Assembly: GCA_045803545.1 (NCBI GenBank) | Contig: JBJMOW010000004.1 | Span: 64,001 to 128,000, forward strand | Length of the DNA stretch: 64,000 nt | Origin: Gemmatimonadaceae bacterium | GTDB taxonomy: Bacteria; Gemmatimonadota; Gemmatimonadetes; Gemmatimonadales; Gemmatimonadaceae | Direction of reading: 5' to 3' | Part shown: in pieces, positions 4,194 through 21,503 of the stretch | Layout of the letters: every line of letters begins with the position of its first letter | Numbering within the stretch: the first letter of the stretch is position 1 | The notes under the pieces: model-generated | Told to the model about the DNA's origin: nothing | Seen by the model: only the letters and a program-made list of their open reading frames with translations | Database searches by the model: none | Made by a program: the position numbers and the translations under genes

Positions 4194-7142
4194 GTGAAGA
4201 CTCTTGAGCGCGCCACGCAGCTTTTGCGAAACGCGAATTCGCTGGACACCCTCGACGAGCTTTTCCGCGAGCTTGGCTTCGCACCGCCACTGCTGCCGCT
4301 CGACCACTCGGCGCTGGCATCGCTCGGGCTCAACGCGCTGAGCGGCGCAAGGATAGTGAAAGGCGAGGGCGCGCTCCGCGGGCTGGCTTTGGCGCTTGAC
4401 CTCACCACTGAGTTGCGCGATGCGTTGACGGGCATCGCGAACGCGCTCGCCCGTAACGCCTCGCAGCTGCTGTGGATCGTGATTGCGCTTCGTCAGCCTG
4501 ACGAGCTGGCGATCGTCTGCTGGCGCTCAATCAACGGGCGCGTGCGCGTCGCGTCACTCATTTGCTCCAAAGACCGCGTGGTTCAAAGCGACGCGGAGAC
4601 ACTATGCATGCTCTCGGCCGTCGGCGGTGAGTCGGATCTGCTAACTCACGCGCGCTGGCTCGATGTACTCGGCCGCGAGGCCATCACCAACAGATTCTTT
4701 CGCGTACTCGAGAGTACCGTTGTCGAGCTCGCGAGATCGCTGAGTGGACGGGTTTCCGCAGCTGAGCGCCGCGAGCTCGCGCTGCTCTACGTGTCGCGTC
4801 TCGTCTTTCTCTCGTTTCTCGAGAGCAAGGGTTGGCTGAACGGCGATTTCTGCTTTCTGTCCAATACCTACGGCGATTGCATCGCCAAGGGCGGACAGTA
4901 CCAGCAGCGGGTTCTGGAGCCGCTGTTCTTCGGTACGCTTAATACGCGCATTCAATCGCGCTCTTCCCGCGCCCGTGATTTCGGAAGGATCCCATTCCTC
5001 AACGGCGGCCTGTTTTCGCGATCTGTACTGGAGAAGCAACGGCGGACGAGCCTGTTCTCCGACGAGGCGTTTGGCAACGCGTTCGGCAATCTCTTCTCGC
5101 GTTTTCGATTCAGCGGCCGCGAAGAGACTACCACCTGGTCCGACGCGTCGATCGATCCGGAAATCCTCGGCAAGGCATTCGAAGCGCTGATGGCAAACAG
5201 CGATCGCAAGAAAAGCGGGTCGTATTACACGCCACAGACTCTCGTCGAGAGACTTGCTGACGAAACCCTGCGCTGTCTCACACAGGGAACGACGCCCGGC
5301 GATCTCGATCGATTATGTCAGGCGAAGCTCCTCGATCCTGCGTGCGGCTCGGGCGCTTTCCTGGTGTACGTCCTTGAACGCGTTGCATCCCACCGCAAGG
5401 ATTGCGGCGAAGCCGGTACGATCGCCGATATCAGACGTCGAGTCTTGTCATCGTCGATTTTCGGCGTCGACCTCAACCCGATGGCGGTCTGGCTCTGTGA
5501 GCTGAGGCTTTGGCTTTCGATCGTGATCGAGAGTAAGGAGCCAGATCCGATGAACGTCGCGACTTTGCCGAATCTTGACCGTCACATCCGGGTTGGTGAT
5601 TCCCTCTCCGCCGGCTCCTTTGACGATCGCGGTAGCACCCTCGGCAGTCGCAAGCTTGCTTCACTGCGCGCGAGGTACATGCGCGCTGTGGGCCCGCGTA
5701 AACGAACGCTCGGGCGGGAGCTGGATCGCATGGAACGCGCGTCCGCCATCGACGTGCTCGCGCGCCGACGAGTGCGTCTCACCGTTGATCGGAAGGAGAT
5801 GCTGCTGCTTCTGCGCGCGCGCGATCTCTTCGGCTTGCGCCATCCGCCCGATCTCGCGACGCAGTTGCGTCTCAAGTCACTGCGTCAAAGTCTGCGTGAG
5901 TCAAGCGAGCGAGTCAGGTCCCTGCGCGCCGGCGCAGCGCTGCCCTTCTCTTTCGACGCTCACTTCCCGGACATCGCAGCCGCCGGCGGATTTGATTGCA
6001 TCATCGGCAATCCGCCGTGGGTGCGGATTCATCGGATCGATGCTGGTGCGCGGCAGAAATTTCGCCAGGAGTTCAAGGTCTACCGCAACGCGCCGTGGCG
6101 CAGCGGCGCCGAGCAAGCCGGCGCAGGCCGTGGATTCGCTGCGCAGGTGGATTTGTCAGCGCTGTTCGTTGAGCGTGCGTGCGGCCTCGCCCGCCCGGGT
6201 GGTGTCATTGCGTACATCCTGCCATCCAAGCTCTGGCGATCGCTGGCGGGCGGCGGACTGCGTGAGCTGCTTCTCGAGCACACCAGCATCGTGATGATCG
6301 AAGATCTGAGCGACGCGCGCAACGAGTTCGAGGCGGCGGTCTATCCATCGCTGCTCATCGCACGCAAGTGTGACGACTCCCGCGCGACACCGACTGGGCT
6401 GCGAGGCGACAAGGCTACTGTAGCCGAGGATTTAATCACGGTAACTGTGCGAACCTCTCGCGGCGGCAAGCGCTGGCGCTGCGAGTCCCACCGTCTGTCC
6501 GTCGACGGACCCGGCAGTCCCTGGCTGCTTTTGCCGGCCGCGGTGCGCAGGGCGTTCGATCGAGTAACCAGAGCAGGCGTTCCATTGCGGGTTACGCCGT
6601 TCGGCCGACCTCAACTTGGCGTCAAGACTGGATGCAACGACGCGTACATCGTTCGGGTGGATTCCGTCGATGGCGACATCGCGCGGGTCTCCAGTAGTCG
6701 AAGCGGTGTGATCGAGCGCTCGCTCCTTCGTCCCCTCGTCCGCGGTGAAACACTGGCGAGGTGGAAATCCGACAAGGCGGGCGAGTACATCGTTTGGCCA
6801 CACGATGACGACGCACACCCGATGCGCGCCCTGCCGCCTCTCGGGCGGGCTTGGCTGCTCCCGTTCCGCGACGCACTCTTGCAGCGAACGGACTTGCACG
6901 ACGCCCGACGCTGGTGGTCGGTGTTTCGCACTGAAGGCGCAACCTGCCACCGACCACGTGTGATCTGGGCAGACTTCGGCTTGCATCCCCGCGCCATGGT
7001 CGTGGCAGAGAACGATCGGTTCGTTCCGCTCAACACCTGCTACGTCGTTCACATCCAGAAACTGATCGACGCCTTCGCACTCGCCGCTATTCTGAACGGA
7101 CCATTGGCGACCGCGTGGCTGAACGCCATCGCGGGTATATAG
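4194..7142 (+). pseudogene. Eco57I/TaqI-like N6-adenine DNA methyltransferase, 5' part (interrupted by casposon)
   Basis: FLNGGLF, GSYYTP, LDPACGSGAF, IGNPPW motifs. The frame ends ...WLNAIA-GI* just inside the element's left end. Confidence 0.88.
7119..7132. repeat. Target-site duplication, left copy
   Basis: CTGAACGCCATCGC, identical to 21490-21503. The match extends 2 nt further (GG). Confidence 0.92.
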
Positions 7143-7163
7143 AGAAGCCTTCAGTTCGCTTCC
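7133..7163 (+). repeat. Left terminal inverted repeat
   Basis: GGGTATATAGAGAAG-N8-TCGCTTCC versus right-end reverse complement GGGTATAGAGGGAAG-N8-TCACTTCC (13/15 and 7/8 matches). Confidence 0.85.
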
Positions 7164-7266
7164 CCTTGTAGATTTCGTATCGCTCGACTGTCGATTTTCT
7201 ATAAAATCGTTCGCAGCCTAGACGTGTTACACTGCTCTGGCAGCGACTGACGATAGGAGGAACACG

Positions 7267-7989
7267 ATGTCTAGATGCACTGCACCCGTATACGGCCACC
7301 GTTCAGCTAGCGCGGCTGCGAACTGCCCTGCGTGCGGAAGCCGGTACCGCTACCGCAGCTACGGCTACGGGTCATACTCTCCATCGTCCTATTCTTCTTA
7401 TGGGAGCAGCGGAGCCGGTCGAAGCAGCAGCGGCGTAGCCCGAAGCAGCGCAAGACCTCGTTGGTCGCCAAGCAGTTCGTCAGCGGTCTACACCCCTACC
7501 GAGGTGGCGGCGCTTACGCCGATCCGCGACAACGTCGAGAAGCTGGCGACGGTGCCTGACCTTCGCGATGTCTTTCTGTGCCACGCGTGGGACGACCGAC
7601 AAGGCGTCGCGAAGGAGCTTCACGACCTCTTAGAGTCGCGGGGAGTGAAGGTATGGTTCAGCGAAAAGGATGTTGGCCTTGGCGTTCCGTTGCTTCGTGC
7701 AATCGACAAGGGCTTGGCTCACTCAAGAGTCGGAATAGTGCTAGTGACTCCCTCACTGTTGCGCCGCCTTCCGAACGAGGGCATTGCTGACAAAGAACTC
7801 TCGGCACTTCTAGCGCGTGAACGGCTTGTGCCAGTTGTGCACGAAACGACATACGAAGCGCTCCGCGACGTCAGTCCCCTTCTGGCCTCGCGAAGCGGCT
7901 TGAGCACTGCAGAAGATTCGATGACTGGCGTCGCGGACAAGCTCGCCGAGCTAGTTGCCTTTGAGCTCTGTCCCGCCCCCGAAGCGTGA
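7267..7989 (+). CDS. TIR-domain protein with N-terminal Cys/His (Zn-ribbon-like) segment
   Basis: DVFLCHAWDDR...GVKVWFSE...IDKGL...KEL TIR pattern. N-terminal C..H..CPAC. AGGAGG RBS. Confidence 0.85.
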   Translation: MSRCTAPVYGHRSASAAANCPACGSRYRYRSYGYGSYSPSSYSSYGSSGAGRSSSGVARSSARPRWSPSSSSAVYTPTEVAALTPIRDNVEKLATVPDLRDVFLCHAWDDRQGVAKELHDLLESRGVKVWFSEKDVGLGVPLLRAIDKGLAHSRVGIVLVTPSLLRRLPNEGIADKELSALLARERLVPVVHETTYEALRDVSPLLASRSGLSTAEDSMTGVADKLAELVAFELCPAPEA

Positions 7990-9092
7990 GTCGCCGAGAT
8001 GGGCAGATGACGCAGCACGCCAAACGGGGGACTGTCAAAGGTTCCTTGGTTGTAGTGCTTCCAGTTGTTCTGAACAGCGATGTTCCAAAAAAAGCAACGC
8101 GACTGCTGCTCAAAGAGCTGGAGGAGCAGTTTTCTCGAACTTTCCTTTCATTGCCGTGGGGCCAAGTGGCGAAGCTCAATGCTGAGCGACTAGCGTCCCC
8201 GAAGTCGTATCCGGCATACGCGCTATCAAAGACTCGCCGTGAATTAAAGGCGGGTCGGCCTCACTTGTTAAAGGTCAGCGTAGATGTCGAAGCACCTAAC
8301 GACGCGAACTGCGTTTGGGGTGACGACACGTTTGTAGTTGCGGAGCACCCGCAATCAGCGCTTTGTTCTGCGACTGAACGGCTTTTCGAGCGCGTAGCAC
8401 TGATGGCATTTGCTTCTCAGCTCGCCGCTCCTGGCTACGCTCATTTCCCCAAGACGGCGGGCTTCATCAATGATCAGCCCTGGGGTGTCGCTTCCGAGAT
8501 TTCCTGGGTGCTACATGAAGCGTGGTTCACTGCGACCAAGTACGGGTGGCCGTCGATTTCTCGACTTCCACTCCAAGAAACGGATGCATGGCTTTGCGGA
8601 ATTCCTGGAATACTTGACGGCATGGGCCGGGGCCGCACAGGACGTGCAATTGCGGCACTGTCACGCATTGTATGCAGCGATATAAATGACAGCTCTGAAA
8701 TGGGCATTGCTTGGTCGTTGCTAGGTCTCGAAGCGTTATATGCGGATGGCAGCCAAGGATCGAGTCAGCAAATCCTTCGAAAATCCGAGATACTACTTGG
8801 TCCTAGAAACCCGAAAAAGCCGCGACTGAAAGGGGTATATGACTACCGTTCTCGGTTTCTGCACGGAAGCATCGACATCCCACTTGCGTACACGAGAGAC
8901 AGCTTTGACCCGCCAGATCAAGGCAAGTTTATGAACGACACGTACGAATACTGGGGCATTGCCACTTGCATGCTGATCGCAACGCTTCAGCAAATGATTC
9001 TTCGCAATCTTGGCGAACTAACTTTTTCGTTGACTCTAGATGTGCCGCTAGCCAGTACGCCTGAATCGCGGAATCTCAAGCTACTGGGCTAG
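7986..9092 (+). CDS. HEPN-domain (ApeA-like) protein
   Basis: SLLGLEALY followed by YDYRSRFLHG (R-x4-H). GTGA overlap with the TIR gene stop. Confidence 0.7.
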   Translation: MSRRDGQMTQHAKRGTVKGSLVVVLPVVLNSDVPKKATRLLLKELEEQFSRTFLSLPWGQVAKLNAERLASPKSYPAYALSKTRRELKAGRPHLLKVSVDVEAPNDANCVWGDDTFVVAEHPQSALCSATERLFERVALMAFASQLAAPGYAHFPKTAGFINDQPWGVASEISWVLHEAWFTATKYGWPSISRLPLQETDAWLCGIPGILDGMGRGRTGRAIAALSRIVCSDINDSSEMGIAWSLLGLEALYADGSQGSSQQILRKSEILLGPRNPKKPRLKGVYDYRSRFLHGSIDIPLAYTRDSFDPPDQGKFMNDTYEYWGIATCMLIATLQQMILRNLGELTFSLTLDVPLASTPESRNLKLLG

Positions 9093-10227
9093 GCGAGTCG
9101 TCGTTTCCATTTGCCTCAATCAGTTTCGCAATGAGGGCCGGGATTGGATTGCGACTAAGCGCGTGCTGTTCCGCCCACGTTAGCCACTGTTTTGTGTTTG
9201 AGTTTGCGGCTGACTCGGTAGCCTCACGGACCGCTGCCACGAACGATAAAAGAGTTTGACTCCGCGCCCACTGCATTGCTTGCTCTTCCAAGTGGCGTAT
9301 TCGAGCTAGTTGCTCTTCTTTTCGTCTCGCAATTTCCGCCAGACGCTTTGATTCAAGCGCTCTAATTCGCTCCGCATCTTCCCAGTACGCTGCGCTTTCA
9401 ATCTCATTGTACGCTCTGGCAAATGCTGCAAATATGAACTCGTTAAGGCGGTCTTCGAGTTTGCCGGTTGGCGTCTCGTCTAAGCTTTTGTCTACGCCGT
9501 GTCCCCAACTATTTCTGAACACCAAGGCGAGACGGCCCGAAGGTTCGTCCTTGTACTTGGGTTCCCAGCTTGACGTCGCCTGCGTCGCAACCTTCTTGAG
9601 TTTTTCGCGAATTCCGAAGGGGATTTCGCGGCCAAGTATGTTCACGTAGGTATTGCGATCCCGCTCCTTTCGCTTCGAGCTGAGAGAAACTTTCCACCCT
9701 CTTTCTTCGAACGCTTTAACGAGAGCGTCCATGATGCGAAGCGCTCGCGGCAGAAGGTCTCGCGTGACCTCTACGTCGAGATACGATTCCTGGTAGTTGT
9801 ACAGAAATTGTTTGAAGGTCGATTTGCCTGATTGCCTAAGTATTTGTTCAGTTCGGCGGACAAGTGGATGCGCATTTCGAAGCGTGTCAGCGACAACGAC
9901 GAGGTTTTCCGGGACGAACTCGAACTCTTCCTGCTTTCTCAGCGCATGTGGCTGGGAGAGATTTATAGGCTCTGCGTGATACCCCAACGTCACTTCGCGA
10001 TCTGTCAGCGAAGGATTCTGCGGCAATGCTGGCAGGGGTTTTTGCTTCACTGGATGTCCGGCCGCTTTCTTGGCCCAATACCCACGTCCAGGGACCGGCA
10101 CGCGTAATCGCTTGCACGTTTTCGCGAGGCCGACGTCCGACAGTCCATAATGCGGCGCGAGGTTTTTCATCGGCTCTGTCCACACTCGCTCGTACAACTG
10201 CTCACGCGTTAATCTGACGATCTCCAC
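9076..10227 (-). CDS. Hypothetical protein with N-terminal HTH-like motif
   Basis: LTREQLYERVWTEPMKNLAPHYGLSDVGLAKTCKRLRVPVPGRGYWAK. Start trimmed to GTG 10227. Confidence 0.75.
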   Translation of the reverse strand: MEIVRLTREQLYERVWTEPMKNLAPHYGLSDVGLAKTCKRLRVPVPGRGYWAKKAAGHPVKQKPLPALPQNPSLTDREVTLGYHAEPINLSQPHALRKQEEFEFVPENLVVVADTLRNAHPLVRRTEQILRQSGKSTFKQFLYNYQESYLDVEVTRDLLPRALRIMDALVKAFEERGWKVSLSSKRKERDRNTYVNILGREIPFGIREKLKKVATQATSSWEPKYKDEPSGRLALVFRNSWGHGVDKSLDETPTGKLEDRLNEFIFAAFARAYNEIESAAYWEDAERIRALESKRLAEIARRKEEQLARIRHLEEQAMQWARSQTLLSFVAAVREATESAANSNTKQWLTWAEQHALSRNPIPALIAKLIEANGNDDSPSPVA

Positions 10228-10238
10228 GGATTGCTTCG

Positions 10239-10976
10239 TTACGATTTGACTTTGATGAGCTTGCCGTTGACGCACTCATAGAAGTCGGGATTCCTGTCAG
10301 CAACTTGCTGGACCAGATCGTCAAAGACCTCAGTGAGTGAAACCGTCTTAGTCGCGTCTCCGACCTTGTACGTTGCTACGCTCGCGGCAAATGGCGATGC
10401 TCCCATGAGGAACAGATACAGCCGCTCGAATTGCTCGTCACGTCCAGCAGGGTCATTGCGATCAGTGAACAGTCGAAGCCTGCTGTGAGCATTAATAAAA
10501 GTCGGACGTCTTTTCGCTGTTCCGTCTGTCTCTGCGCCTTTGTCGAAAAACATGAAAGCGGCAAGAACGGCGTACGGGAAGCGGCGATGCAGTGTGACTG
10601 CTTCGATCAGCATGTCACCGCGACGATTGGTGAGGTTCTTCTGATAATTCTTTGAGCGCTTGTCTTTGAAAGAGATGGCCTTAATCGAAATGCCGAGGAG
10701 GAGTCCTGACACTTCGGTTGCCCACGTTACATCTACTTTCTTCGCGCCGATTCCTCCCGCCATTCTGCGCTCAGCGCCAGACCCTTCAAGCTCACCCGGA
10801 CCAGCGGGCCGTGCACCGTCGAGTCCGCGATTTCGCAGTTCTTCTGCGCACGCGAGTGCGATCTTCTCCGATAAGCGCTCGGAGTAACGCTTCTTTACTT
10901 CCCTCGATGAATCGTCTGGAGGTTTTTCGCCGACAGCCTTTAGCGCTGCCTCGAAGAGTTCGTCAATCGCGGCCAT
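10239..10976 (-). CDS. Putative type II restriction endonuclease (PD-(D/E)xK-like)
   Basis: KKVDV...GISIK pattern. Overlaps the 3' end of the MTase gene. Confidence 0.6.
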   Translation of the reverse strand: MAAIDELFEAALKAVGEKPPDDSSREVKKRYSERLSEKIALACAEELRNRGLDGARPAGPGELEGSGAERRMAGGIGAKKVDVTWATEVSGLLLGISIKAISFKDKRSKNYQKNLTNRRGDMLIEAVTLHRRFPYAVLAAFMFFDKGAETDGTAKRRPTFINAHSRLRLFTDRNDPAGRDEQFERLYLFLMGASPFAASVATYKVGDATKTVSLTEVFDDLVQQVADRNPDFYECVNGKLIKVKS

Positions 10977-12645
10977 TGGCTGACCTACTCCGCGCTTCGC
11001 GTCGCCCGAACAACACTTCTTTCGATTCGCGAAGCGAAGCGATTGCTTTGTAAGACAGACCGCAAGCCGCCGAGAGAATGACTCTGTCCACGAGCTTCAC
11101 AGCTTCGGACAGCTCCCCTCTTCCTAGCGCTTGATTCACCTGAGGACGTAGCGCTCGCAATTCGTCACCGAAAGCGAGCAGAATTTCAGGTGACGGAACA
11201 GGCAGCTTGTCGGCTTCAGTGGGTTCCAACTTCAGAAGGCCACCACCATACGCTCGACCGACCATCTCAGCGCCGAGCAACGTGAGACTGTTTATAGAAG
11301 CGAGTGGGAGAAGGTCCATACCGAGCTTTCGATAGTCCTGCCTGAGTGCGACGCCGTACAGAGAGTTCAGATAGCGTACTCGCGCCAAGTTGGTAGTGAG
11401 TCTAGGTCTCACATGATCCATGTACGTCAACAGAATATCAGGGACAGCTTTAACGGGAACTTTCCACCAAGGTTTGCGATTTCTGCACTTGTAAGCCTCG
11501 TGGACGTTCATCGTCTCGCCGAGTGCGATGTATTTCTCTGCTGCATCAGAGAGTTCGCCTTCGCCGGTTGGCGCGAAAAGGTAGACACTCGCTCCATGTT
11601 TGCCGAGTTCTTCCCAGCTCTTTTTGGTGAACGAGAGGCCGCGCAAATGCCGAGACCCCGGCGGCGAAATTCTTTGTAGCTCGTTGCGCCTGATGCCTAA
11701 CTTCTTCACCTCAGCAACCGTCAGCGTGAAGTAGGCATTGTTACCAGTGACAGAGCCGAGAGACGTGTCACCCCAATCCAGGAGAGTGCAGAAGCCATCA
11801 CCTGTAGCAGTGTCGCGGTATTGTTTGACCGCCTCCGTTGGAAGCAGAGCGGAAGTCCACTTACCGCCTTTATCTGGTGCGAACCAATTCCAATCGCCCG
11901 TCTCCACGCTGCCGAGTGCACTCAGATCGTACGCTTGCGACACCTCGAAGTGCGGGGCGGGTCCCTCGCCCTCAGCGAGGAGCAACACAACATCTTCGAG
12001 AACTTGCGGGAAGACTCGCGCTTCAAACATGACGAGACGAACAGACTTGAATCTCTTCAGCAGAAAGCGACGAACTTCGGCCGCGTAGTTGACCGTCAGC
12101 AGCTCGGCGGGAAGAACTAGTCCGAGTCTTCCACCGGGTTTGAGAAAGCAAGACGCGTGAACAACGAACGGAGCCCACGAGCTCGTGAGTCCGGTGAGGC
12201 GCACCCCCTGTGTCAGTGCGGCTTCCAACCCCTTGAGACGATTTTCGCCTGCGAAATCTTGGTAGCGTACATACGGCGGATTGCCGATCACAGCATCGTA
12301 GCGCGGAACAGGTTCGATGTCGAAGAAATCACCAACGTAAATCTCTGGACGATACCCAGCCTCACCCATGATTCGCTGAGCTTGTTCGACTGATTCCGGA
12401 TGAACGTCGACGCCGACGATCTGAGGCGGGAAAGGAAGCCCGTCTGCTCTGAGAGCTGAGAGGCGAGTTGCAGCGGGGAGAAGAAAAGCCGCTTCCCCGC
12501 ATGACGGTTCGAGCACGGCATCATCAGGACTTCGCACAGCCCAGTCCACTATGAACTGGGTCATGGCGGATGGCGTGAAGTACGCGCCTCTAGTTTTTCG
12601 TTGTGCGAGAGTATCAGCCACAGCGGGCCCTGGGTTGGTCGCCAT
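10963..12645 (-). CDS. N6-adenine DNA methyltransferase (gamma class)
   Basis: GAYFTP, LEPSCGEAAF, VIGNPPY and GGGLLKLEP motifs. Confidence 0.92.
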   Translation of the reverse strand: MATNPGPAVADTLAQRKTRGAYFTPSAMTQFIVDWAVRSPDDAVLEPSCGEAAFLLPAATRLSALRADGLPFPPQIVGVDVHPESVEQAQRIMGEAGYRPEIYVGDFFDIEPVPRYDAVIGNPPYVRYQDFAGENRLKGLEAALTQGVRLTGLTSSWAPFVVHASCFLKPGGRLGLVLPAELLTVNYAAEVRRFLLKRFKSVRLVMFEARVFPQVLEDVVLLLAEGEGPAPHFEVSQAYDLSALGSVETGDWNWFAPDKGGKWTSALLPTEAVKQYRDTATGDGFCTLLDWGDTSLGSVTGNNAYFTLTVAEVKKLGIRRNELQRISPPGSRHLRGLSFTKKSWEELGKHGASVYLFAPTGEGELSDAAEKYIALGETMNVHEAYKCRNRKPWWKVPVKAVPDILLTYMDHVRPRLTTNLARVRYLNSLYGVALRQDYRKLGMDLLPLASINSLTLLGAEMVGRAYGGGLLKLEPTEADKLPVPSPEILLAFGDELRALRPQVNQALGRGELSEAVKLVDRVILSAACGLSYKAIASLRESKEVLFGRREARSRSANGRD

Positions 12646-12720
12646 CGCGAAAGGAGGCAAGCGCTGCGGGAAACTTACGGTGCGCCTTCGGTTTAGCCAA
12701 TGCCTTTCTAGCTCAACAGT

Positions 12721-12954: not shown

Positions 12955-13036
12955 GACCCGCCTCCAGCGGAGTAAGTCGGGTAAACTGCACTAAGCAGCA
13001 GCATACTTCGCAACCTGATTGGCGCGACAATAATCA

Positions 13037-14611
13037 CTAGTCCGCAGGGTCGTTTTCTCTTTCAGAAATGAGACGCCTCAAAGAGTCCCAGTGACGGGGA
13101 TGCGGCGTTATCTCTCCACTTCTAATCTTCTTGCAGGAGCTTATGGACAGATGCGACGCGGCAGCTATTTCGCGAACGGGGACGCTCCTGATCGCTGGAA
13201 GTATTTCTGTTTTGAAAACCGCAGCTGTTGGGATGTCGCGATGCTTTGCTTCCCACGTGGCGTTCAGTGCGTTTTGAGCTACGGCGTGTTGTCGATGCTT
13301 CTCTCGAACCTGCGGGCTGCTTCGCTTGTCCTCGCCAATCGCACGAAGCATCGCTTGTGTTTCTACACCTTTTCTTGAAGCCCTAGCAGCGTGCTTTGGT
13401 AGACACGTGTCGCAATACGTGCGAGTACGCCGTTCCATTGCGACTCCGCAATCCGCACAGCGCTTGGTTAGTCCGCTAGACTGCTTTCCGACTGGCCGCT
13501 TCGCAGTCGGACGTCGTTGACGGTTTCGCTGGGTAAGCGGAGTTCGGTGGCGTCTAGTACCGATATTTTCTTCGGAATTGATTCGCGTGGGCGTAAGCGA
13601 CATCTGCGCGAAGTAAGCTGCGAGTCGTTCTGCCCATGGCGCGACGGCACGCGACCATTTTGTAGTAGTGACTGCGAGAGGGCGTGTAAGCTCTGGCATT
13701 AACCGACAATTCCCGTTTCGCAATTCGAAAAAGTCGCTGCGGGCAAACGTCTGCGAGTTTAGAAGTTCAAGAAGATGTAGATCGACGCTTGGCCGCGTTG
13801 GTTCCATCAAGTCGCAGGCAAACGAATCGCGTGGACTGACGTCCGCGTGTATGATGCCGATTGCAGGATCACAGCCAACCGCGATCGCGGCTAGCCGTGC
13901 CTCAGCTTCTAGAAGCGCGTAGAGATAATTCAGAATCGCATTTGCCGGTGACGCAGCTTTCCGAGGAGAAGCGCTTAGGACCGAGCGTCGCGTCCCAAAC
14001 GCCAGCCAATGTTGCGGCACGTAGCGCGCATCGCTCTTAGTGAAGCGCACGGGAATTGTTTCCCAGGCTTGCCAGTACGCGGCCGCAGCTCGGGATTCGA
14101 AAAATCTGATCTCTTCGAGAGAGGTTGCTGATTGAAGGCGATCATGGAACTGAGTGACCGCGGCCCGATTTTCTTTAACGCCTTCGATTACTTCGAGCAC
14201 GCGTAATTGGCCGCTCACTTTATGAGCGATCAGATCACGCAGGATCTGTAGCGCATCTGCGGAATACATTGCGACAGCCTGCCCGCGTCGCACGCGCGTG
14301 TCTCGAATCGCGTTCGGCGCTCCACTGGCGATGAGTTCACCGTCAGGACCGATTTGCACAAAGGCCGCATCTATCTCGTGCAGCCAACGGAGCGCTTCGA
14401 GCGTCACTGTACCAGAGTGTCCGACAACAATCAGTCTCCGGATGCCTGACGCAACGCGCGGAAAGCGACCGACGCGACGATGCGCGCCCGCGCCATCCTC
14501 CGTTACCAAGTGCCCTCGTTCTACGGCAACGCGAATTCCGTAACCGGAGAGAGCAAGAACGCCGCTTTCTGACGGCAGATTATTGATTGTTTCGAGCTTC
14601 TGTTGCTGCAT
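13037..14611 (-). CDS. cas1: Casposase: stand-alone Cas1 with C-terminal Zn ribbon and HTH
   Basis: Cas1 motifs LSGYG..V.VERGHL, GTVTLEALRWL, E(SRAAAAYW), NAILNYLY, GIIH, DLMEP. C-terminal CADC...CDTC and HTH. GGAG RBS before ATG 14611. Confidence 0.92.
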   Translation of the reverse strand: MQQQKLETINNLPSESGVLALSGYGIRVAVERGHLVTEDGAGAHRRVGRFPRVASGIRRLIVVGHSGTVTLEALRWLHEIDAAFVQIGPDGELIASGAPNAIRDTRVRRGQAVAMYSADALQILRDLIAHKVSGQLRVLEVIEGVKENRAAVTQFHDRLQSATSLEEIRFFESRAAAAYWQAWETIPVRFTKSDARYVPQHWLAFGTRRSVLSASPRKAASPANAILNYLYALLEAEARLAAIAVGCDPAIGIIHADVSPRDSFACDLMEPTRPSVDLHLLELLNSQTFARSDFFELRNGNCRLMPELTRPLAVTTTKWSRAVAPWAERLAAYFAQMSLTPTRINSEENIGTRRHRTPLTQRNRQRRPTAKRPVGKQSSGLTKRCADCGVAMERRTRTYCDTCLPKHAARASRKGVETQAMLRAIGEDKRSSPQVREKHRQHAVAQNALNATWEAKHRDIPTAAVFKTEILPAIRSVPVREIAAASHLSISSCKKIRSGEITPHPRHWDSLRRLISERENDPAD

Positions 14612-15464
14612 TGAGCAACTCCGGAATAATAGGAACGGTGATGAGGGCAAAAAGCATTTGCGACTCAATATCAGGGTGTACGGTGTGCTTACTAAGCAGA
14701 GCAACCAACGGCGCTTGATCCGCGCGCTCGGCGGAGATTCGTGGGAGGGCTTCGCCTATAGCCGCCGCAACTTCGAGGAGATCGAGAGGCGTTTTCTCAG
14801 CTACTTCGATAAAGTTCGCACGCGCCCATATCGTGGCGAACGAACGAAATGCAGAATCCCAGCTCGAAGAGTGAAAGAGCTGATCCAGCGTCTTTCGCTC
14901 TGATTGTAGCACTGGGGTGAATTCACCTTCGCCGAGTTTTGCGATCAAAACGGCGAGATTGCCGTAACGGTTCTTTGGGTATCGCCCGGGCTTATTCACA
15001 GCTCTCCGGACATCCCGTAAGAACGGACTTGATATAGCTCCGCTCGAATGATTGATCGCGTGCTCGACTAGTTGCGAATGTTCGGCGCCGGTACGTGTTC
15101 GTAGTCTGTCGAACTTGGTAGCTGCGCGCACGAGTGCAGCTCGAAGCATGGGCTCCGGAACTGTGTGACCTGCGCGCCAAAGAGCCCAAGCAGAATGCCC
15201 GAGTGGTATACGCAACGCGGAGACACGGTCGGCGCGTAGGCCAGAGACGCGAGCGATTATCCGCAGACGGTGCAAGACGGTTTGAGAGAATCGCGCGGCT
15301 TCCCATCCCGCAGCTCGGCCGCGTCCACGTCTTTTTGCGATTGGCGGCTCTAGGAGCCCTGCTTGCTGCCAACGCCGGAACTGATCGCGCGAAACGCGAA
15401 GCCCCTCCACTCGAAGGGCGGCCCGCATTTCCTCAATGGTAAGGGACTCCGGCTGAGCTTCCAC
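14580..15464 (-). CDS. Hypothetical protein, N-terminal winged-HTH-like region
   Basis: LTIEEMRAAL...VSRDQFRRWQQAGLL. Overlaps the cas1 start. Confidence 0.6.
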   Translation of the reverse strand: MEAQPESLTIEEMRAALRVEGLRVSRDQFRRWQQAGLLEPPIAKRRGRGRAAGWEAARFSQTVLHRLRIIARVSGLRADRVSALRIPLGHSAWALWRAGHTVPEPMLRAALVRAATKFDRLRTRTGAEHSQLVEHAINHSSGAISSPFLRDVRRAVNKPGRYPKNRYGNLAVLIAKLGEGEFTPVLQSERKTLDQLFHSSSWDSAFRSFATIWARANFIEVAEKTPLDLLEVAAAIGEALPRISAERADQAPLVALLSKHTVHPDIESQMLFALITVPIIPELLNAATEARNNQ

Positions 15465-15584
15465 GCTTTAATTTAGTACTGCGCGCCTAAGCCCGCAACA
15501 TTAAACTGCGCAAGTAGTTAGCCTCCTACCGCAAGCGGATGCAGCAGGCGTCCGTAGCAGTCTTGTTTCCACCCAGGAGGCCCC

Positions 15585-15782
15585 ATGACGACCTATCTCA
15601 CCTCGGCAGACGCCGCGAGGGTTCTCGATCTGTCGCCCAGCGCTGTACGGCTGATGGCGCGGCTCGGAACTCTCCGCGTCTCAGCTCGAACCGAAGGCGG
15701 TATTTCCCTTTTCCGACGCCAAGACGTCGAGCGATTAGCAGCTCGCCGAACACTTCTCCATCGCAATCAAGGGAGGAGCTAA
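15585..15782 (+). CDS. Excisionase/MerR-like HTH protein
   Basis: YLTSADAARVLDLSPSAVR...F...DVE. AGGAGG RBS. Confidence 0.85.
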   Translation: MTTYLTSADAARVLDLSPSAVRLMARLGTLRVSARTEGGISLFRRQDVERLAARRTLLHRNQGRS

Positions 15783-15786
15783 TCGG

Positions 15787-16092
15787 ATGCCGAAGCGCAA
15801 ACGGGGCACATCACGCCACCTCACCAAGGAGATGCGATTCCTGACTCCGCAGGGTGTGGTTGCGCTGCCGATTCGAAACTCACAATCCGCGTCAGATATC
15901 GGCGAGTACTGGAATGCAGTGAATCACTATCTCAAAACAGGCCGCTCAAATCGACTGAGACCGTTTCGAGGCAGAACGGTGCAAGCAGCAGGAGCGCAGC
16001 ACCGATTCGTCACTGATGAAGCGACGTTAGAACGATTGGCGAATGCTGGTGAAGTGCGCTTTGAAGACCTCTACGTACTCACCGGGCTCTGA
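15787..16092 (+). CDS. Small basic hypothetical protein
   Basis: GGAGG RBS. Lies in the operon between the HTH and HNH genes. Confidence 0.7.
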   Translation: MPKRKRGTSRHLTKEMRFLTPQGVVALPIRNSQSASDIGEYWNAVNHYLKTGRSNRLRPFRGRTVQAAGAQHRFVTDEATLERLANAGEVRFEDLYVLTGL

Positions 16093-16101
16093 GAGACGGA
16101 A

Positions 16102-16521
16102 ATGAAAACCAACTCAAATGCCGCGCGGAACGTCGCTCGGCGGGCAAGGAGAGCGAGAATGTTTCCGGCAAGTGCAGTATGCGCGTTGTGCGGATATGCC
16201 AACCCGGTAGCCCTGATAGCAGTAGACAAAACCCTTCTCGAAGAGCATCACGTTTTCGGCGCTGCTTTCGATGACGGTACGCGCATCCCATTGTGCCGCA
16301 ATTGTCACGCGGAAGTTACGGAGGGAATTCGTGCAACGGGCGCATCCATGCGCCCGCAGCCGTCGTTGTTTGAGAATCTCATACAGGCAACCAAGGCGCT
16401 TGAGGTTTATTACCGTGCTCAGGCAATTACGCACGGTCGCATCGCGCATGAACTGCAACGGCGAGTCGATACGCTCGACGCGCTATTTCCCGATTGGCGC
16501 TCCATCGAGGAGGAACTATGA
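16102..16521 (+). CDS. HNH endonuclease-like protein
   Basis: CALC...EEHH...LCRNCH. ATGA overlap with polB. Confidence 0.8.
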   Translation: MKTNSNAARNVARRARRARMFPASAVCALCGYANPVALIAVDKTLLEEHHVFGAAFDDGTRIPLCRNCHAEVTEGIRATGASMRPQPSLFENLIQATKALEVYYRAQAITHGRIAHELQRRVDTLDALFPDWRSIEEEL

Positions 16522-19500
16522 CCGCCGACCGCTTACCGATTGCGCTCAGAGCGTACGCCGAGCGCACTGACGTACCGCACAGAGGCGGTTCGCCACTCGC
16601 CCGCAAAGTTTGGCCCCAACAAATCCTTGTCTTCGACACAGAAACGACAGTTGACGCGTTACAACGCCTCACGTTCGGTAGCTATCGACATCTGGAACGT
16701 GGCGCCGATGGAAAAGCGACGCTACTCGAAGAAGGGCTTTTCTACGAAGACGCGTTGCCGAGGTCGGATCCGAACGGCTTCGCTGCGTTGCGAGCGTACG
16801 TTAAGCAGCATTCCGAATTGAAACTGTTTTCGAAGTCGGAGTTTCTTGGCGAGGTCTTTTACAGAGTCGCTTACCAAGCGCGCGGGTTAGTCGTTGGCTT
16901 CAATCTCCCATTTGATCTAACCAGGCTCGCCGCTACTTGGGGTGAGGGACGAGAAAAGTTCTACGGTGGTTTCTCGCTCGTACTGTGGCAGGCTTGGCAC
17001 CCAGAAAGAGAAGAGTGGATCGAAGATCCTTGGCGGCCTCGCGTTCTACTCAATCTCGTCAATAGCAAAATGGCATTTATCGAGTTCGGTACACCGATGG
17101 AACTCGATCCCCGAGACGCGGTTCGCGACGCAACGCAGCAAGTAGGCGCGAGAAAAAGGCCGTGGGCGTTTCGCGGAAATTTCTTGGACGTTAGAACGCT
17201 AGCGTTTGCGCTTACGGGCGAGTCGTACTCACTCGAAGGGGCATGCAAAGCGTTTAACGTCGAGCATGGAAAGACGGTAGCAGAGGAACACGGCAGGATT
17301 ACCGACGCCTACATCGAGTATAACCGTCGCGACGTACTTGCTACTAGCGAGCTACTAGAGCGGCTAAAACTCGAATTCGACACACACCCTATAGCTCTTA
17401 ACCCATGTAAGGCGTACTCACCCGCGAGTATCGGCAAGGCCTATGTACGGGCGTTGGGCGTTACATCCCCTGTTGTAAAGTTTGCCGATATACCGCGCGA
17501 ACTCCACGGAATCGCGATGAGCGCTTACTACGGTGGTAGAGCAGAGTGTCACATTAGAAAAGTACCGCTACCCGTAGTTCACACCGATTTCATCTCGATG
17601 TACCCGACTGTTTTTGCACTGCTCGGAATGTGGGCTTTAGTCACGGCCAAAAGTATCAGCGTTGAAAGGTGCACTGAGGAAGCACAACGCCAGCTCGATA
17701 CCGCAAGTACCGATGCCTACTTCCAGCAACATCTATGGCGCGACCTGAATTGGTTTGGTGAGATCGAACCTGATGGTGACATCGTTCCTGTTCGCGCTCA
17801 GTATGATCCTTCAAGTGATGCACTGAACATCGGCGTCAATCAGTTCTCTACGAGCCAACCATTTTGGTATGCTGGCCCCGATTTAGTAGCCTCGCTCCTA
17901 CTTACGGGTAAAGCTCCAAAGATCAAACGGGCAATTCGCCTAGTAGCGAACGGTCGGCAAGATGGACTCAAAGAAGTTCTGTTTTCGGGAAGCTTGCCCA
18001 TCGACGCGGCTACCGGCGACTTCATAAAGAACGTGATCGAAGAAAGAAAGCGCACTCAGCGCGGTACTGCCTTAACTCGCGAAGACCGCGACCGGATTGC
18101 GCGCACCCTTAAGCTCGTTGCGAATAGCACGAGCTACGGAATCTTCGCCGAGGTCAATCAGCAGGTACTTCCACTAGACACCGAGGCAGATGTAAGAATC
18201 TTCGCTTCGGGAAAGAGTTTCGACGCTAAGACTCGTCGTCCTGAAACGCCGGGCGAATTCTGTTTCCCGCCGTTTGCTGCACTCGTGACCGCAGCTGCGC
18301 GATTGATGCTAGCAATGCTCGAACGGACTGTGACGGACGCAGAAGGGACCTTTGCCTTCTGCGATACCGATTCGATGGCGATTGTGGCGACTGAAAATGG
18401 TGGTTCTGTCGCGGTACCTGGTGCGACTCGCCGACATCAGAACGGAGTGCGAGGAGTAAAGGCGCTTTCGTGGTCAGCCGTGAACGAGATTGTTCAGCGC
18501 TTCGAAGCGCTAAACCCGTATGAGCGATCAGTCATTCCCGGGTCCGTCCTCGAAATCAAGGATGTGAACTTCGATGATGAGCGAAAGCAACGGCAACTAT
18601 ATGTCTACGCAATCGCTTCAAAGCGGTACACGTTCTTTGCCAAAAACGGCGAGAAAAAAGTCCAGATCATTGAGCCTTCGGAGCACGGTCTCGGACATCT
18701 GATAAATCCGCTGACTGACGGAGGGCCTCGGCAATGGATCGAGGTGTTTTGGGAGTATATCGTGGCTGGCGCATTGGGCTTGCGGCCCGTGCGACCTTCC
18801 TTTCTACACGTACCCGCGTTGACGCGTATTACCGTCAGCTCACCGCATATTCTGCGACCGTTTGCGCAACAAGAGAAGGAATTACCGTTTAATGAGCGCA
18901 CTAGCCCAACGGTATTTCTTTTGAGCGCGAGCATCGCTCCGAATGGACATCCAGTTGGTGCCGACCCGGAACGCTTTCACCTGTTGGCACCGTACCAACG
19001 GGATTCAACTAAGTGGCTGGAAATGAAATGGACCGAGTTACACTCAGCTCATGATTATCCGGTAACAACGGAATTTCCGGCCCCGCCTTACGTGGCACAA
19101 GTTCGTTCATTCGCGGACGTGCTGACAGATTTTGTTATGCGACCCGAGCCTAAAAGTGCGTCCAGTTCTGGCGAGCTTTGTGAGAGAAAAACGCTCGGGT
19201 TATTGCAGCGTCGCGATGTCCGCGTTGCTTCGATCCATTGTGTTGGAAAGGAAACCAACCGACTCGAACCAGTACAACAGGGTTTGGTACATGATTGGAG
19301 CGAAGTCTATACGCTTTACCGCAATCCTGAATTGGATGCCTGGCGCAACGATATCTTGCCCGGCTTGAAACGGATTCGACGCAAAGCACTGAGCGAAGCA
19401 ACCGGCATTACTCGGCGCGCGATTCGTTCAATTCTTAATGGCTACAGCCTTCCGAGCCCAAGGACGCGAGAGAGATTGATAGCGACGCTCGAAACACAGG

Positions 19501-19541
19501 CTTCGCCAAGTATTGCAACTGGCGGTAACCGTCCGTTATGA
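16518..19541 (+). CDS. polB: Family B DNA polymerase with C-terminal HTH
   Basis: Exo I FDTET, Exo II GFNLPFD, Exo III YNRRD, YYGGR, motif A DFISMYP, motif B KLVANSTSYG, motif C CDTDS, KRY. GAGGAGG RBS. Confidence 0.93.
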   Translation: MTADRLPIALRAYAERTDVPHRGGSPLARKVWPQQILVFDTETTVDALQRLTFGSYRHLERGADGKATLLEEGLFYEDALPRSDPNGFAALRAYVKQHSELKLFSKSEFLGEVFYRVAYQARGLVVGFNLPFDLTRLAATWGEGREKFYGGFSLVLWQAWHPEREEWIEDPWRPRVLLNLVNSKMAFIEFGTPMELDPRDAVRDATQQVGARKRPWAFRGNFLDVRTLAFALTGESYSLEGACKAFNVEHGKTVAEEHGRITDAYIEYNRRDVLATSELLERLKLEFDTHPIALNPCKAYSPASIGKAYVRALGVTSPVVKFADIPRELHGIAMSAYYGGRAECHIRKVPLPVVHTDFISMYPTVFALLGMWALVTAKSISVERCTEEAQRQLDTASTDAYFQQHLWRDLNWFGEIEPDGDIVPVRAQYDPSSDALNIGVNQFSTSQPFWYAGPDLVASLLLTGKAPKIKRAIRLVANGRQDGLKEVLFSGSLPIDAATGDFIKNVIEERKRTQRGTALTREDRDRIARTLKLVANSTSYGIFAEVNQQVLPLDTEADVRIFASGKSFDAKTRRPETPGEFCFPPFAALVTAAARLMLAMLERTVTDAEGTFAFCDTDSMAIVATENGGSVAVPGATRRHQNGVRGVKALSWSAVNEIVQRFEALNPYERSVIPGSVLEIKDVNFDDERKQRQLYVYAIASKRYTFFAKNGEKKVQIIEPSEHGLGHLINPLTDGGPRQWIEVFWEYIVAGALGLRPVRPSFLHVPALTRITVSSPHILRPFAQQEKELPFNERTSPTVFLLSASIAPNGHPVGADPERFHLLAPYQRDSTKWLEMKWTELHSAHDYPVTTEFPAPPYVAQVRSFADVLTDFVMRPEPKSASSSGELCERKTLGLLQRRDVRVASIHCVGKETNRLEPVQQGLVHDWSEVYTLYRNPELDAWRNDILPGLKRIRRKALSEATGITRRAIRSILNGYSLPSPRTRERLIATLETQASPSIATGGNRPL

Positions 19542-19572
19542 CCACCCTACATTTAACTATGTGCCCACAAGC

Positions 19573-19956
19573 ATGATAAAGCTTCGACCGAAAACGGTGC
19601 GTGATGCGGTAGGACCTTTTGCTGGCGCTGTCCTACTGACGCTTTGGGCATTCTTCATATTCGACGCCAATTGGCTAGAGCGCATAATCCTCGCGATCAT
19701 TTTTGGGTTTTTCGCTCAAGCCATTGGACTGATCGCATACTTCACGGCGTCGTACTTTAGCGCTTGGCTGATGGGCGAAAAGCTTGACACCAAGTCAATC
19801 GACATCTACGACCATCGAGTCGCGGGTGCGTTGCTGCTCGCCGCATTCGTGTACGTATTAGGCCAGCATTGGCGAAGCAGTGCTCGCGACTCTATAGCTC
19901 GCTGTGTACGAGAGGAAACTCGCGTGAGCATTCGGGCAGTTCACCAACGCGGTTGA
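19573..19956 (+). CDS. Membrane protein (about 3 TM), 3' end possibly frameshifted
   Basis: Hydrophobic segments. ATG at 19573. Confidence 0.6.
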   Translation: MIKLRPKTVRDAVGPFAGAVLLTLWAFFIFDANWLERIILAIIFGFFAQAIGLIAYFTASYFSAWLMGEKLDTKSIDIYDHRVAGALLLAAFVYVLGQHWRSSARDSIARCVREETRVSIRAVHQRG

Positions 19957-20042
19957 CTTAGTCCAGTACTGCACCGATGAATACGGGCGCGAGGATTCCT
20001 CGCCGGACGACTGACATCATTCTGCGCTAGGCGCAGCCGTAC

Positions 20043-20678
20043 TCAGGTACAGGTCGCTCGAAGGCCGGTGAGCCTGACCTTCTTCACAGTCACAGTTGAA
20101 AAGCCATTCGACACCGCGAGTACCATAGGACTCGCCTGACCCGTGCGCGCGTCGAGTGTCACCGCAGTCGTCTTGTCGGTCTGAAAGTACGCGTGTGCCT
20201 CGTGACCATTCACGAAGTTCTGATAGTCGTCTTTCGCCAGAACAACAACCTGGACGTCCTTCGCTCCCCCGTCCGTCACTTCAATGTGACCCGTGACATG
20301 ACACTGCGCTTGTTGCGGCGTAACGTTCCATTCGAAGGATTGAATACTGCCAGCGGGTATCGTGATCTCTCCGTCAGGAGCGAGTTGTGTCACCGATGGC
20401 TGCATCACTTGTAACGCGCTGGCGGCTGATCGAGCACCACTCGAAGAGTCGTCGTTGTTTGCTGTTGCGAGGACAATGAAGAGTACCAACACCGCGAGGA
20501 CCAACAGACCGACCATGTTGCGAGTTCTGTTCGAGCGCTGCTCGACAGGCTTGGACGGAGCAGGGCGTTCAGGTTTGGGGGTGGCTGGCGCCGACGCCGC
20601 AGGCAAATCGCGTTTGCAATGTTTGCACACTACAGCAGCGTCTTGGATTTCCTCAGCGCAGTAAGGGCACGTTCTCAT
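20043..20678 (-). CDS. Zinc-ribbon + TM + beta-rich extracytoplasmic domain protein
   Basis: MRTCPYCAEEIQDAAVVCKHC, Pro-rich linker, one TM helix. Confidence 0.8.
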   Translation of the reverse strand: MRTCPYCAEEIQDAAVVCKHCKRDLPAASAPATPKPERPAPSKPVEQRSNRTRNMVGLLVLAVLVLFIVLATANNDDSSSGARSAASALQVMQPSVTQLAPDGEITIPAGSIQSFEWNVTPQQAQCHVTGHIEVTDGGAKDVQVVVLAKDDYQNFVNGHEAHAYFQTDKTTAVTLDARTGQASPMVLAVSNGFSTVTVKKVRLTGLRATCT

Positions 20679-20889
20679 TAAATCAGCTCGGTGATGGACT
20701 GGCTTTAGACGCCTACATGCAAACACCCGCAACCGCGCGTTCCTTGCGCTTTCGATATTGCCAGCGTTCTTCGCGAGTCGCGGCAAGAAATGATAGAAAA
20801 CAGGCAGTTCGGTGATATAAAAACGACATTGTTCTAGCGGCCAAAGCAGGGCAGTGTAGGGTGACGAATGCTTCTCAACAGGAGGTCGC

Positions 20890-21060
20890 ATGGCCCGCGT
20901 CCCACCTTATCACACCAACTCTCCCGAGTACCCTCCTCAGCATCGCGAGGTGTATCACGACAAAGACACCTGTCCAGACGGTAGGCGCATTAAACGCGAG
21001 CACCTTTTACAGGGCACGGGGAACAAGAAACACTGCTTCGAGTGCGACAAGGTTAGTTAG
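20890..21060 (+). CDS. 56-aa His/Cys-containing small protein (not in ORF track)
   Basis: AGGAGG RBS. MARVPPYHTNSPEYPPQHREVYHDKDTCPDGRRIKREHLLQGTGNKKHCFECDKVS*. Followed by a hairpin. Confidence 0.75.
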   Translation: MARVPPYHTNSPEYPPQHREVYHDKDTCPDGRRIKREHLLQGTGNKKHCFECDKVS

Positions 21061-21071
21061 CCAATAAAGAA

Positions 21072-21106
21072 AGAGCGGGTAGGACTGAAAGGTCCTTACC
21101 CGCTCT
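21072..21106. terminator. Hairpin between convergent small genes (probable terminator)
   Basis: AGAGCGGGTAGGAC-loop-GTCCTTACCCGCTCT. Confidence 0.7.
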
Positions 21107-21128
21107 GATCGTTTCTACTTCTAGCCAG

Positions 21129-21335
21129 TTACGGCTTTCTCCATTTGTCGGGATGACCGGCCGATGTGTCCCGCACACGCTCAACGTGCGGAGCAACACC
21201 AGGCTCTAATTCCCTCGCGCGTGCAATCGCTTCCTTCTGAGTCGGCTCGACTGCACTCGCCCGCTGAGAACCTGCACGTCGCACTGCGTAATCGCCTTCC
21301 TCTCGACGTTCGACAAAAATTTTTTTGCTAGACAT
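21129..21335 (-). CDS. DUF2188-like protein
   Basis: YAVRRAGSQRAS...TQKEAIARARE pattern. Confidence 0.75.
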   Translation of the reverse strand: MSSKKIFVERREEGDYAVRRAGSQRASAVEPTQKEAIARARELEPGVAPHVERVRDTSAGHPDKWRKP

Positions 21336-21458
21336 CGTAAACCTACCGCGGAAGAGGTTTAGGTGAGACTCTTATGCACGATAACATCGCGTAATGTGCA
21401 AGTGGTAGATCGAGGCCGCGTGAAGAACGGTAGTTGTTAGTACAGATCGCTACTTGGC

Positions 21459-21489
21459 GGAAGTGATTCTTGCCCTTCCCTCTATACCC
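21459..21489 (-). repeat. Right terminal inverted repeat
   Basis: Reverse complement reads GGGTATAGAGGGAAGGGCAAGAATCACTTCC. Confidence 0.85.
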
Positions 21490-21503
21490 CTGAACGCCAT
21501 CGC
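21490..21503. repeat. Target-site duplication, right copy
   Basis: CTGAACGCCATCGC. Confidence 0.92.

Follow-up and report, generated by a model that had tools for sequence, protein, structure and literature searches.

A probable family-3-type casposon inserted in the 3' portion of a methylase gene of a Gemmatimonadaceae bacterium

That bacteria harbour casposons has been known since 2014, and those of family 3 (such as AceAut-C1, NitAL212-C1, HenMar-C1 and StrAlb-C1) combine, in the excerpted text of their description (PMC4046053), a bacterial host with a core of Cas1, PolB and HNH genes. According to the same excerpts, the Cas1 of AceAut-C1 carries a zinc-binding domain and a helix-turn-helix (HTH) domain at its C-terminus (Krupovic et al. 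2014, PMC4046053), NitAL212-C1 is 14,414 bp long, and published casposons have inverted repeats of 36 to 602 bp and target duplications of 14-15 bp. The bacterial casposons known by 2016 were all intergenic (2016 paper), and the published evidence for casposon mobility that we found comes from archaea. The archaeal family-2 casposon of Methanosarcina mazei, which targets the 3' end of tRNA-Leu, is active in vitro and in vivo (PMC6977970; Gehlert et al. 2023, PMC10359463, both as excerpted), and in the structure of its casposase the ends 5'-TATATCCC are joined to a 14-bp target (PMC6977970); the code 6OPM appears in this paper (Hickman et al. 2020, PMC6977970). The abstract of a 2021 paper describes little as known outside family 2, and our literature searches found no biochemically characterised bacterial casposase and no paper joining "casposon" with "Gemmatimonadota". 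Here, we describe a 14,357-bp element at positions 7133-21489 of a 64,000-nucleotide stretch of a Gemmatimonadaceae genome (GenBank assembly GCA_045803545.1, contig JBJMOW010000004.1, positions 64,001 to 128,000 of the forward strand; this whole stretch is called the window, and positions below refer to it), which is very probably a complete family-3-type bacterial casposon, recently integrated in a methylase gene of the host, within the 3' part of that gene.

The element brings together a Cas1 integrase, a PolB, terminal inverted repeats and a 14-bp target-site duplication; neither Cas2, an array nor a further recombinase was found, and the corresponding empty site occurs in related genomes. 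Like the excerpted family 3 elements, it has a bacterial host and a Cas1/PolB/HNH core, with the HNH gene and a gene for a conserved small protein beside the polymerase; its size is near that of NitAL212-C1, its duplication falls in the published range, and its Cas1, like that of AceAut-C1, has a zinc-binding domain and an HTH domain at the C-terminus. The ends also agree in starting with GGG followed by A/T-rich sequence (GGGGTATG in NitAL212-C1, GGGATAG in AceAut-C1, GGGTATA here). Unlike the published family 3 elements, every one of which is reported to be intergenic, the window element lies inside a coding gene, and its inverted repeats are imperfect and much shorter than the published range given in the excerpts. 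With the M. mazei casposon, whose casposase (6opm_A) is the best solved relative of the Cas1 here, it shares the 14-bp duplication and a similar 3' end (TATATCCC there, TATACCC here); the M. mazei element differs in its archaeal host, its tRNA-Leu target, a Cas1 without a zinc ribbon and a demonstrated activity that is not known from any relative of the window element. What sets the window element apart is its Gemmatimonadales host, its site within a gene and without the GTCAA/TTGAC motif of most relatives, its defence-type cargo and an empty site seen directly in a near-identical strain of an independent sample.

The boundaries are defined by the 14-mer CTGAACGCCATCGC, of which the window has exactly two copies, at 7119-7132 and 21490-21503 (left and right copies of the target-site duplication, exact repeats of each other), with an expected count of zero from shuffles of the window; in the 3.7-Mb genome there is no copy beyond the two that flank the element. 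Read directly, the repeat extends over 16 bp, two bases beyond the 14-mer, because GG comes next in the target and is also the start of the element; the duplication is read as 14 bp because only this reading yields symmetric GGG...CCC ends. The left terminal inverted repeat (7133-7147, plus strand, GGGTATATAGAGAAG) and the reverse complement of the right one (21475-21489, minus strand, GGGTATAGAGGGAAG) are identical at all seven tip positions (GGGTATA) and at 13 of 15 positions without gaps, and both strands of the element end in ...TATACCC-3'; past 15 nucleotides the similarity between the ends is weaker and gapped and continues to about 50 nucleotides. The G+C content is 55.1% in the element against 60.5% in the flanks. 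The first-pass annotation, made from the letters alone, had described an identical 14-mer flanking a 14,357-bp island of lower G+C content with inverted GGGTATA ends, and repeat, size, composition and ends were all borne out. The window contains no extra element end or tandem copy, the third end-like match having 3 mismatches and lying within polB.

The gene interrupted by the element encodes an Eco57I/MmeI-like methylase, the 5' part of which occupies 4194-7132 on the plus strand (Pfam Eco57I, N6_Mtase and MmeI_Mtase; PADLOC type IIG and DrmMI) and the 3' part, 76 codons and the stop, 21504-21732 on the same strand, as established from the restored open reading frame (ORF) and its alignment to a relative. 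The 5' frame now stops 3 codons inside the element, and removal in silico of the element with one repeat gives a single open frame of 1055 amino acids. Through the insertion, the methylase loses its last 76 codons, and there is parted from its upstream gene an SNF2-type helicase gene (21711-23945; helicase domains in Pfam and PADLOC), the start of which is overlapped by the methylase stop. The methylase gene is present in 59 of the 61 genomes of the order that were searched, the window's own counted, and in 34 of 36 other genomes of the same genus, and its full-length matches in relatives are uninterrupted frames of at least 1027 amino acids. The restored site aligns to the closest same-genus genome without gaps over 599 bp (78% identity). 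A much closer counterpart is a 2073-bp soil-metagenome contig from run X3, which belongs to another study than the runs that hold the element best: it follows the window over 5800-7121 and then over 21493-21735, skipping 14,371 bp, that is, the element and one repeat, with 26 of 1565 letters different. The join in this contig falls exactly on the site, so that a strain with about 98% identity to the window exists without the element at the predicted bases.

The insertion is recent. This had been suggested in the first-pass annotation on account of the perfect duplication and open core ORFs, and the closely related strain without the element now agrees with it; likewise, the uninterrupted allele which that annotation proposed to look for in relatives is found, as open frames in the same genus and as the X3 contig across the exact site. 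As a separate observation on the target, the methylase, in which no nuclease domain was detected, and the overlapping SNF2 helicase gene resemble a defence module, and the methylase is unusually conserved for a defence gene, being present in all 35 high-quality genomes of the order.

The integrase gene of the element lies at 13037-14611 on the minus strand and encodes a casposase of 524 amino acids consisting of a Cas1 domain (PF01867, 122 bits), a CxxC...CxxC zinc ribbon and a C-terminal HTH; the start is an internal methionine set by homologues, the full ORF extending to 14704 (555 amino acids). In the numbering of the 555-amino-acid ORF, the catalytic residues E203, H286, D298 and E301 do not vary among the 16 sequences aligned and correspond to the same residues of the solved structure 6opm_A. 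The zinc-ribbon cysteines C416, C419, C431 and C434 are invariant in the 16 sequences as well, and the HTH-like tail is conserved. The protein passes the generic NCBI cas1 model only and fails all eight CRISPR-subtype models, its scores of 25 to 90 bits falling short of cut-offs that range from 120 to 560. It is the one match to PF01867 in the genome, in which Cas2 (PF09827) has no match and a crude script found no CRISPR-like array, the same script finding arrays at 38 of 46 CRISPR-type Cas1 loci used as a control. No other cas gene lies at the locus, the genome-wide search having covered Cas1, Cas2 and arrays, and none of the 13 element ORFs scanned matches a Pfam family of transposases or of tyrosine or serine recombinases. 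The CRISPR adaptation module (Cas1-Cas2) resembles the system described here in its homologous Cas1 fold, its catalytic residues and the duplication of the target on integration, which in CRISPR is the duplication of a repeat; it differs in that here there is no Cas2, array or nearby cas gene, and the Cas1 has a fused zinc ribbon and HTH and is linked to PolB. The features expected of a CRISPR-associated Cas1, namely, a subtype model, Cas2 and a nearby array, were thus all looked for and none was found.

Transcribed divergently from the casposase gene, on the plus strand, are the genes of the polymerase operon, which starts with a conserved small core protein (15787-16092, 101 amino acids) that has relatives in the same position in 42 of the 80 related loci and 9 of the 14 metagenome loci compared. 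It is followed by an HNH-type nuclease (16102-16521, 139 amino acids; PHROG phrog_2255, E 1.5e-4, with CxxC...HH...CxxCH in the translation) and a family-B DNA polymerase with a C-terminal HTH (16494-19541, 1015 amino acids), the assignment of which draws on motifs, a fold model, Foldseek and PHROG. The Exo I motif and motifs A, B and C of the polymerase are conserved in 15 sequences, in all of which D624, T625 and D626 of motif C (FCDTDSM) are invariant. Its AlphaFold model (predicted local distance difference test, pLDDT, 85; predicted template-modelling score, pTM, 0.84) matches B-family polymerases throughout the PDB matches listed by Foldseek (ranks 1-50 with gaps, best E 9e-12), and a PHROG DNA polymerase family is matched at E 1.8e-12. 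Sequence comparisons are fainter: the match to Pfam DNA_pol_B_2 is below the cut-off, phmmer against PDB sequences found nothing, and a profile gave weak matches to PDB sequences (E 0.017 or worse), the best of which are polymerases. By its sequence, motif C matches that of the PolB_CDTDS group, which is named for the motif and includes, in the excerpted text, the polymerase of the Aciduliprofundum boonei casposon (Kazlauskas et al. 2020). The C-terminal tail of the polymerase resembles that of Cas1 (E 4e-5 for the pair), an HTH tail common to Cas1 and PolB being described for family 2 in the excerpts of PMC4046053. The content predicted from the letters, that is, a Cas1 with catalytic E/H/D-E residues, a full PolB, HNH and HTH genes, and no cas2, array or other integrase, stands up to all of these searches.

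Relatives of the casposase are numerous. In a protein search, 8000 candidates were scored, of which 1746 reach E<=1e-10; every one of the 120 best has a length of 331-616 amino acids and a Cas1 domain, and five relatives show 74-79% identity. A scan of metagenomes found none above 53% identity, and none of 36 genomes of the same genus encodes a related Cas1. Of 600 candidate stretches in one-genome-per-species contigs, 496 encode a relative, and 80 of these were kept as related loci, mostly from Acidobacteriota, with others from Gemmatimonadota, Chloroflexota, Eremiobacterota, Actinomycetota and further phyla. By tblastn at E<=1e-5, a PolB lies within 10 kb of Cas1 in 73 of the 80 loci and HNH relatives occur in 14. 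Arrays, which stand beside 38 of the 46 CRISPR-type Cas1 loci, were called at only 2 of the 80 family loci (3-4 repeats each, uninspected). Complete elements were recognised by a script demanding 7 identical terminal bases from GG, an inverted repeat of at least 11/16 and a duplication of at least 11/14; it found them in 25 of 94 related loci, and the 14-bp duplication is perfect in all 25.

This pattern bears on the possibility that the window region is a genomic island moved in another way, by homologous recombination or an unrecognised recombinase, and carrying an orphan CRISPR-derived cas1 together with a polymerase gene. Five of the 13 element ORFs have no match in four libraries of hidden Markov models (HMMs), two of the five having leads only in Atlas clusters, and one such family-less ORF could in principle be a recombinase. 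Set against this are the 14-bp duplication and GGG...CCC ends, which are the signature of every complete relative and, in the excerpts, of published casposons, the joint occurrence of Cas1 and PolB at nearly all related loci, and the scarcity of arrays among family loci. We consider an island of this kind very improbable and continue with the casposon.

The insertion sites of the relatives show a preference that the window element does not share. In 20 of the 25 complete relatives the duplication has GTCAA at its start or TTGAC at its end; the motif is absent from the window site CTGAACGCCATCGC and from those of L059, L069, L070, L077 and L091, among which L070 is a cousin of the window element from the same order. 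Soil acidobacterial family-3-type casposons agree with the window element in the Cas1/PolB family, the 14-bp duplication and the GGG ends, and the acidobacterial-type relatives differ in their GTCAA/TTGAC sites and in that the window Cas1 falls in a separate supported clade that contains Gemmatimonadota. In two relatives both halves of the motif are seen: the 14-bp duplication of L036 ends in TTGAC with GTCA inside, and the 15-bp repeat of L044 reads GTCAA...TTGAC, which hints at a partly palindromic target. L036, a complete element of 12.7 kb the 14-bp duplication of which is perfect, lies on the chromosome of the cultured Tunturiibacter psychrotolerans X4BP1. Several related elements abut the end of another element (flanks GGGATAGG or ...CCCC), an indication of tandem arrays. 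Insertion inside genes is not unique to the window, because the casposon of L059, an actinobacterial genome, sits mid-frame in a CpaF/VirB11-like ATPase gene (the name being read from 30 residues of junction context). No shared target gene emerged: when the junction frames restored for 13 relatives, several of which are probably spurious in high-GC DNA, were compared by BLASTP with the window target and each other, nothing fell below E 0.25, and ARAGORN found no tRNA in 12 of the 13, the thirteenth having a tRNA-Gln 85 bp past the right duplication.

These features are consistent with the following course of integration, which is modelled on the chemistry of studied archaeal casposases and on the gene content of the element. 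The casposase would bind the 3' ends of the element (...TATACCC-3' on both strands), probably as a tetramer, and would join them to the two strands of the target at positions 14 bp apart, the stagger being directly visible in the duplication; gap filling or repair would then duplicate the 14 bp. The PolB of the element, together with the HNH and small proteins of the operon, presumably copies the element during or after excision. As the first-pass annotation suggested, the element may still be mobile.

Several points weigh against the reading of this locus as a recently inserted, family-3-type casposon. Its placement in family 3 comes from architecture, PDB ranking and the literature and not from a tree with reference casposases. 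In the PDB, 6opm_A is the best solved relative of the casposase both by sequence and by profile, and it is only slightly ahead of the archaeal CRISPR Cas1 4n06. In a maximum-likelihood tree built quickly from 110 Cas1 rows, the 95 family rows, with that of the window among them, are split from 15 array-linked CRISPR Cas1 proteins with 100% support in the Shimodaira-Hasegawa-like approximate likelihood-ratio test (SH-aLRT); this outgroup is narrow, consisting of 15 similar metagenome proteins, and the tree carries a long-branch warning and leaves out archaeal and published casposases. Within these bounds, the window Cas1 belongs to a supported clade of 10 rows, four of which come from Gemmatimonadota records, and this split, together with the failure of every subtype model, speaks against the nesting of the protein inside CRISPR-associated clades that the first-pass annotation had named as the outcome contrary to its view.

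The evidence from metagenome contigs is also uneven. The element is present at 100% identity in runs X1, X2 and X4, which are not independent support because they are possibly the source sample. An X1 contig covering 20780-22358 spans the right junction with no mismatch; the left junction is bridged by none of the contigs listed, so that the concern raised in the first-pass annotation, an assembly chimera at the junctions, is answered on the right side and stays without a bridging contig on the left. That the junctions are an artefact, with a foreign contig joined into the chromosome, would fit the metagenome-like source of the assembly, the difference in G+C content between element and flanks and the unbridged left side. 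A chimera would not, however, yield a perfect 14-bp duplication that restores a conserved 1055-amino-acid ORF, and in the X3 contig the empty form has its break at the very same positions; with the X1 contig added to these, an artefact is hardly credible, and we retain a genuine insertion. In the X1 contigs, word depth rises from about 3 in the flanks to about 5-7 within the element (window 5800-22800), a contrast left uninterpreted because contig depths cannot be ranked.

Finally, the inverted repeats are short and imperfect (13/15), whereas those of most complete relatives match at 16/16. A genuine, recently inserted casposon could now be immobile, an intact-looking relic with imperfect ends or unseen regulatory defects. 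Besides the ends, this alternative has in its favour that the element is present in a single copy in the genome, that related Cas1 genes are missing from the 36 same-genus genomes and that no excised or tandem form was seen among the metagenome contigs compared. It has to contend with core ORFs that are all open, conserved catalytic residues, a perfect duplication and a strain about 98% identical that lacks the element; moreover, according to a review available in excerpt, the last five 3' nucleotides are what studied casposases need, and the two ends of the window element agree in their last seven. We regard such a relic as a serious possibility to which we assign clearly less than an even chance.

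Between the left end and the casposase gene, the element carries cargo that looks like two defence modules, a TIR plus HEPN-like pair and a methylase plus nuclease-like pair. The first gene of the former encodes a ThsB-like TIR-domain protein (7267-7989, plus strand, 240 amino acids; Pfam TIR_2, E 1e-15; PADLOC PDLC00424, E 3.3e-124), which covers the ThsB model PDLC00424 over its full length. Its stop is overlapped by a gene for a 368-amino-acid protein (7986-9092, plus strand) with no match in Pfam, PADLOC, NCBIfam or PHROG. The nearest Atlas cluster of this protein is "putative Apea-like HEPN" (score 0.96; template-modelling (TM) score 0.79), and its translation contains RSRFLH, consistent with an R-x4-H pattern; these leads make it a candidate ApeA-like HEPN effector. 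The two genes were considered as a Thoeris system and this was rejected, because no ThsA-like protein is found in the element (the ThsA models match none of its ORFs) and the neighbour looks HEPN-like; they may form a TIR-plus-HEPN defence pair without ThsA. 

In the second pair, the methyltransferase is clear: an Eco57I-type N6-adenine DNA methyltransferase (10963-12660, minus strand, 565 amino acids; Pfam M_Eco57I_C, Eco57I and N6_Mtase) matches the PADLOC MTase_II model PDLC03301 at E 6e-175. The end of its gene is overlapped by that of a 245-amino-acid candidate restriction endonuclease (10239-10976, minus strand), which has no match in Pfam, PADLOC, NCBIfam or PHROG; its role as partner in a type II restriction-modification pair is suggested by this overlap and by Atlas look-alikes, which fall in "Restriction endonuclease family protein" clusters (score 0.98, TM score 0.85-0.86). 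The methylase of the element and that of the host share merely generic catalytic-domain similarity, and we infer no targeting logic from it.

Cargo of this type is recurrent among the relatives. At a PADLOC cut-off of E<=1e-10, 14 of the 25 complete relatives, a small sample, have at least one cargo match (13 if one HTH-only match is set aside), with 26 of their 212 cargo ORFs matching PADLOC models, which include parts of type I and IIG restriction-modification systems, PifA, a retron reverse transcriptase with NDT, dCTPase, PD-T4-6 and several candidate systems. In the excerpted text of a 2024 paper (PMC11551731), the density of defence genes in 48 published casposons is lower than in pipolins, and soil-bacterial casposons may be richer in such genes than those 48. 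Pipolins themselves, as excerpted, resemble the window element in that they replicate themselves, encode a B-family polymerase and carry cargo of the defence type, and differ in having a primer-independent polymerase and tyrosine recombinases instead of Cas1 (PMC11551731).

The locus matters in several respects. With its ends and 14-bp target defined and the sequence of the empty site available from a close strain, it offers a clean test case; its casposase carries an additional zinc ribbon and HTH tail. The element shows that bacterial casposons can insert within genes and carry defence-type cargo, and it bears on the persistence of relatives of the CRISPR adaptation machinery in soil bacteria. 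A bolder view, which we consider doubtful, is that the element represents a currently active casposon lineage of Gemmatimonadota that makes no use of the GTCAA/TTGAC sites of the acidobacterial cousins, can insert in genes and serves as a vehicle in swapping defence systems. If this were true, the element would truncate a methylase-helicase module of the host and deliver a restriction-modification system of its own together with an undescribed TIR plus HEPN-like pair, and the casposons of soil bacteria would constitute a defence-carrying class of mobile elements, at odds with the low density given for the 48 published casposons.

The remaining ORFs of the element are less informative. A 399-amino-acid cargo protein between the two defence-type pairs (9076-10275, minus strand) has no match in Pfam, PADLOC, NCBIfam or PHROG; the same holds for a 294-amino-acid protein (14580-15464, minus strand), encoded upstream of and overlapping the casposase gene, which also has no tblastn match in the 80 related loci. 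At gathering score, Rfam has no match in 6500-22500, and promoter and terminator scans gave fewer sites than in shuffles. Downstream of polB there is a 147-amino-acid ORF (19513-19956, plus strand) with a sub-threshold Pfam match only, and a 282-amino-acid zinc-ribbon protein (20043-20891, minus strand) is assigned by a sub-threshold Pfam zinc-ribbon match and by phrog_8032, a PHROG family without an assigned function (E 1.2e-10). The gene closest to the right end encodes a 68-amino-acid DUF2188 protein (21129-21335, minus strand; PF09954, E 5.4e-10), which also matches the PADLOC candidate PDC-S16 (E 4e-10).

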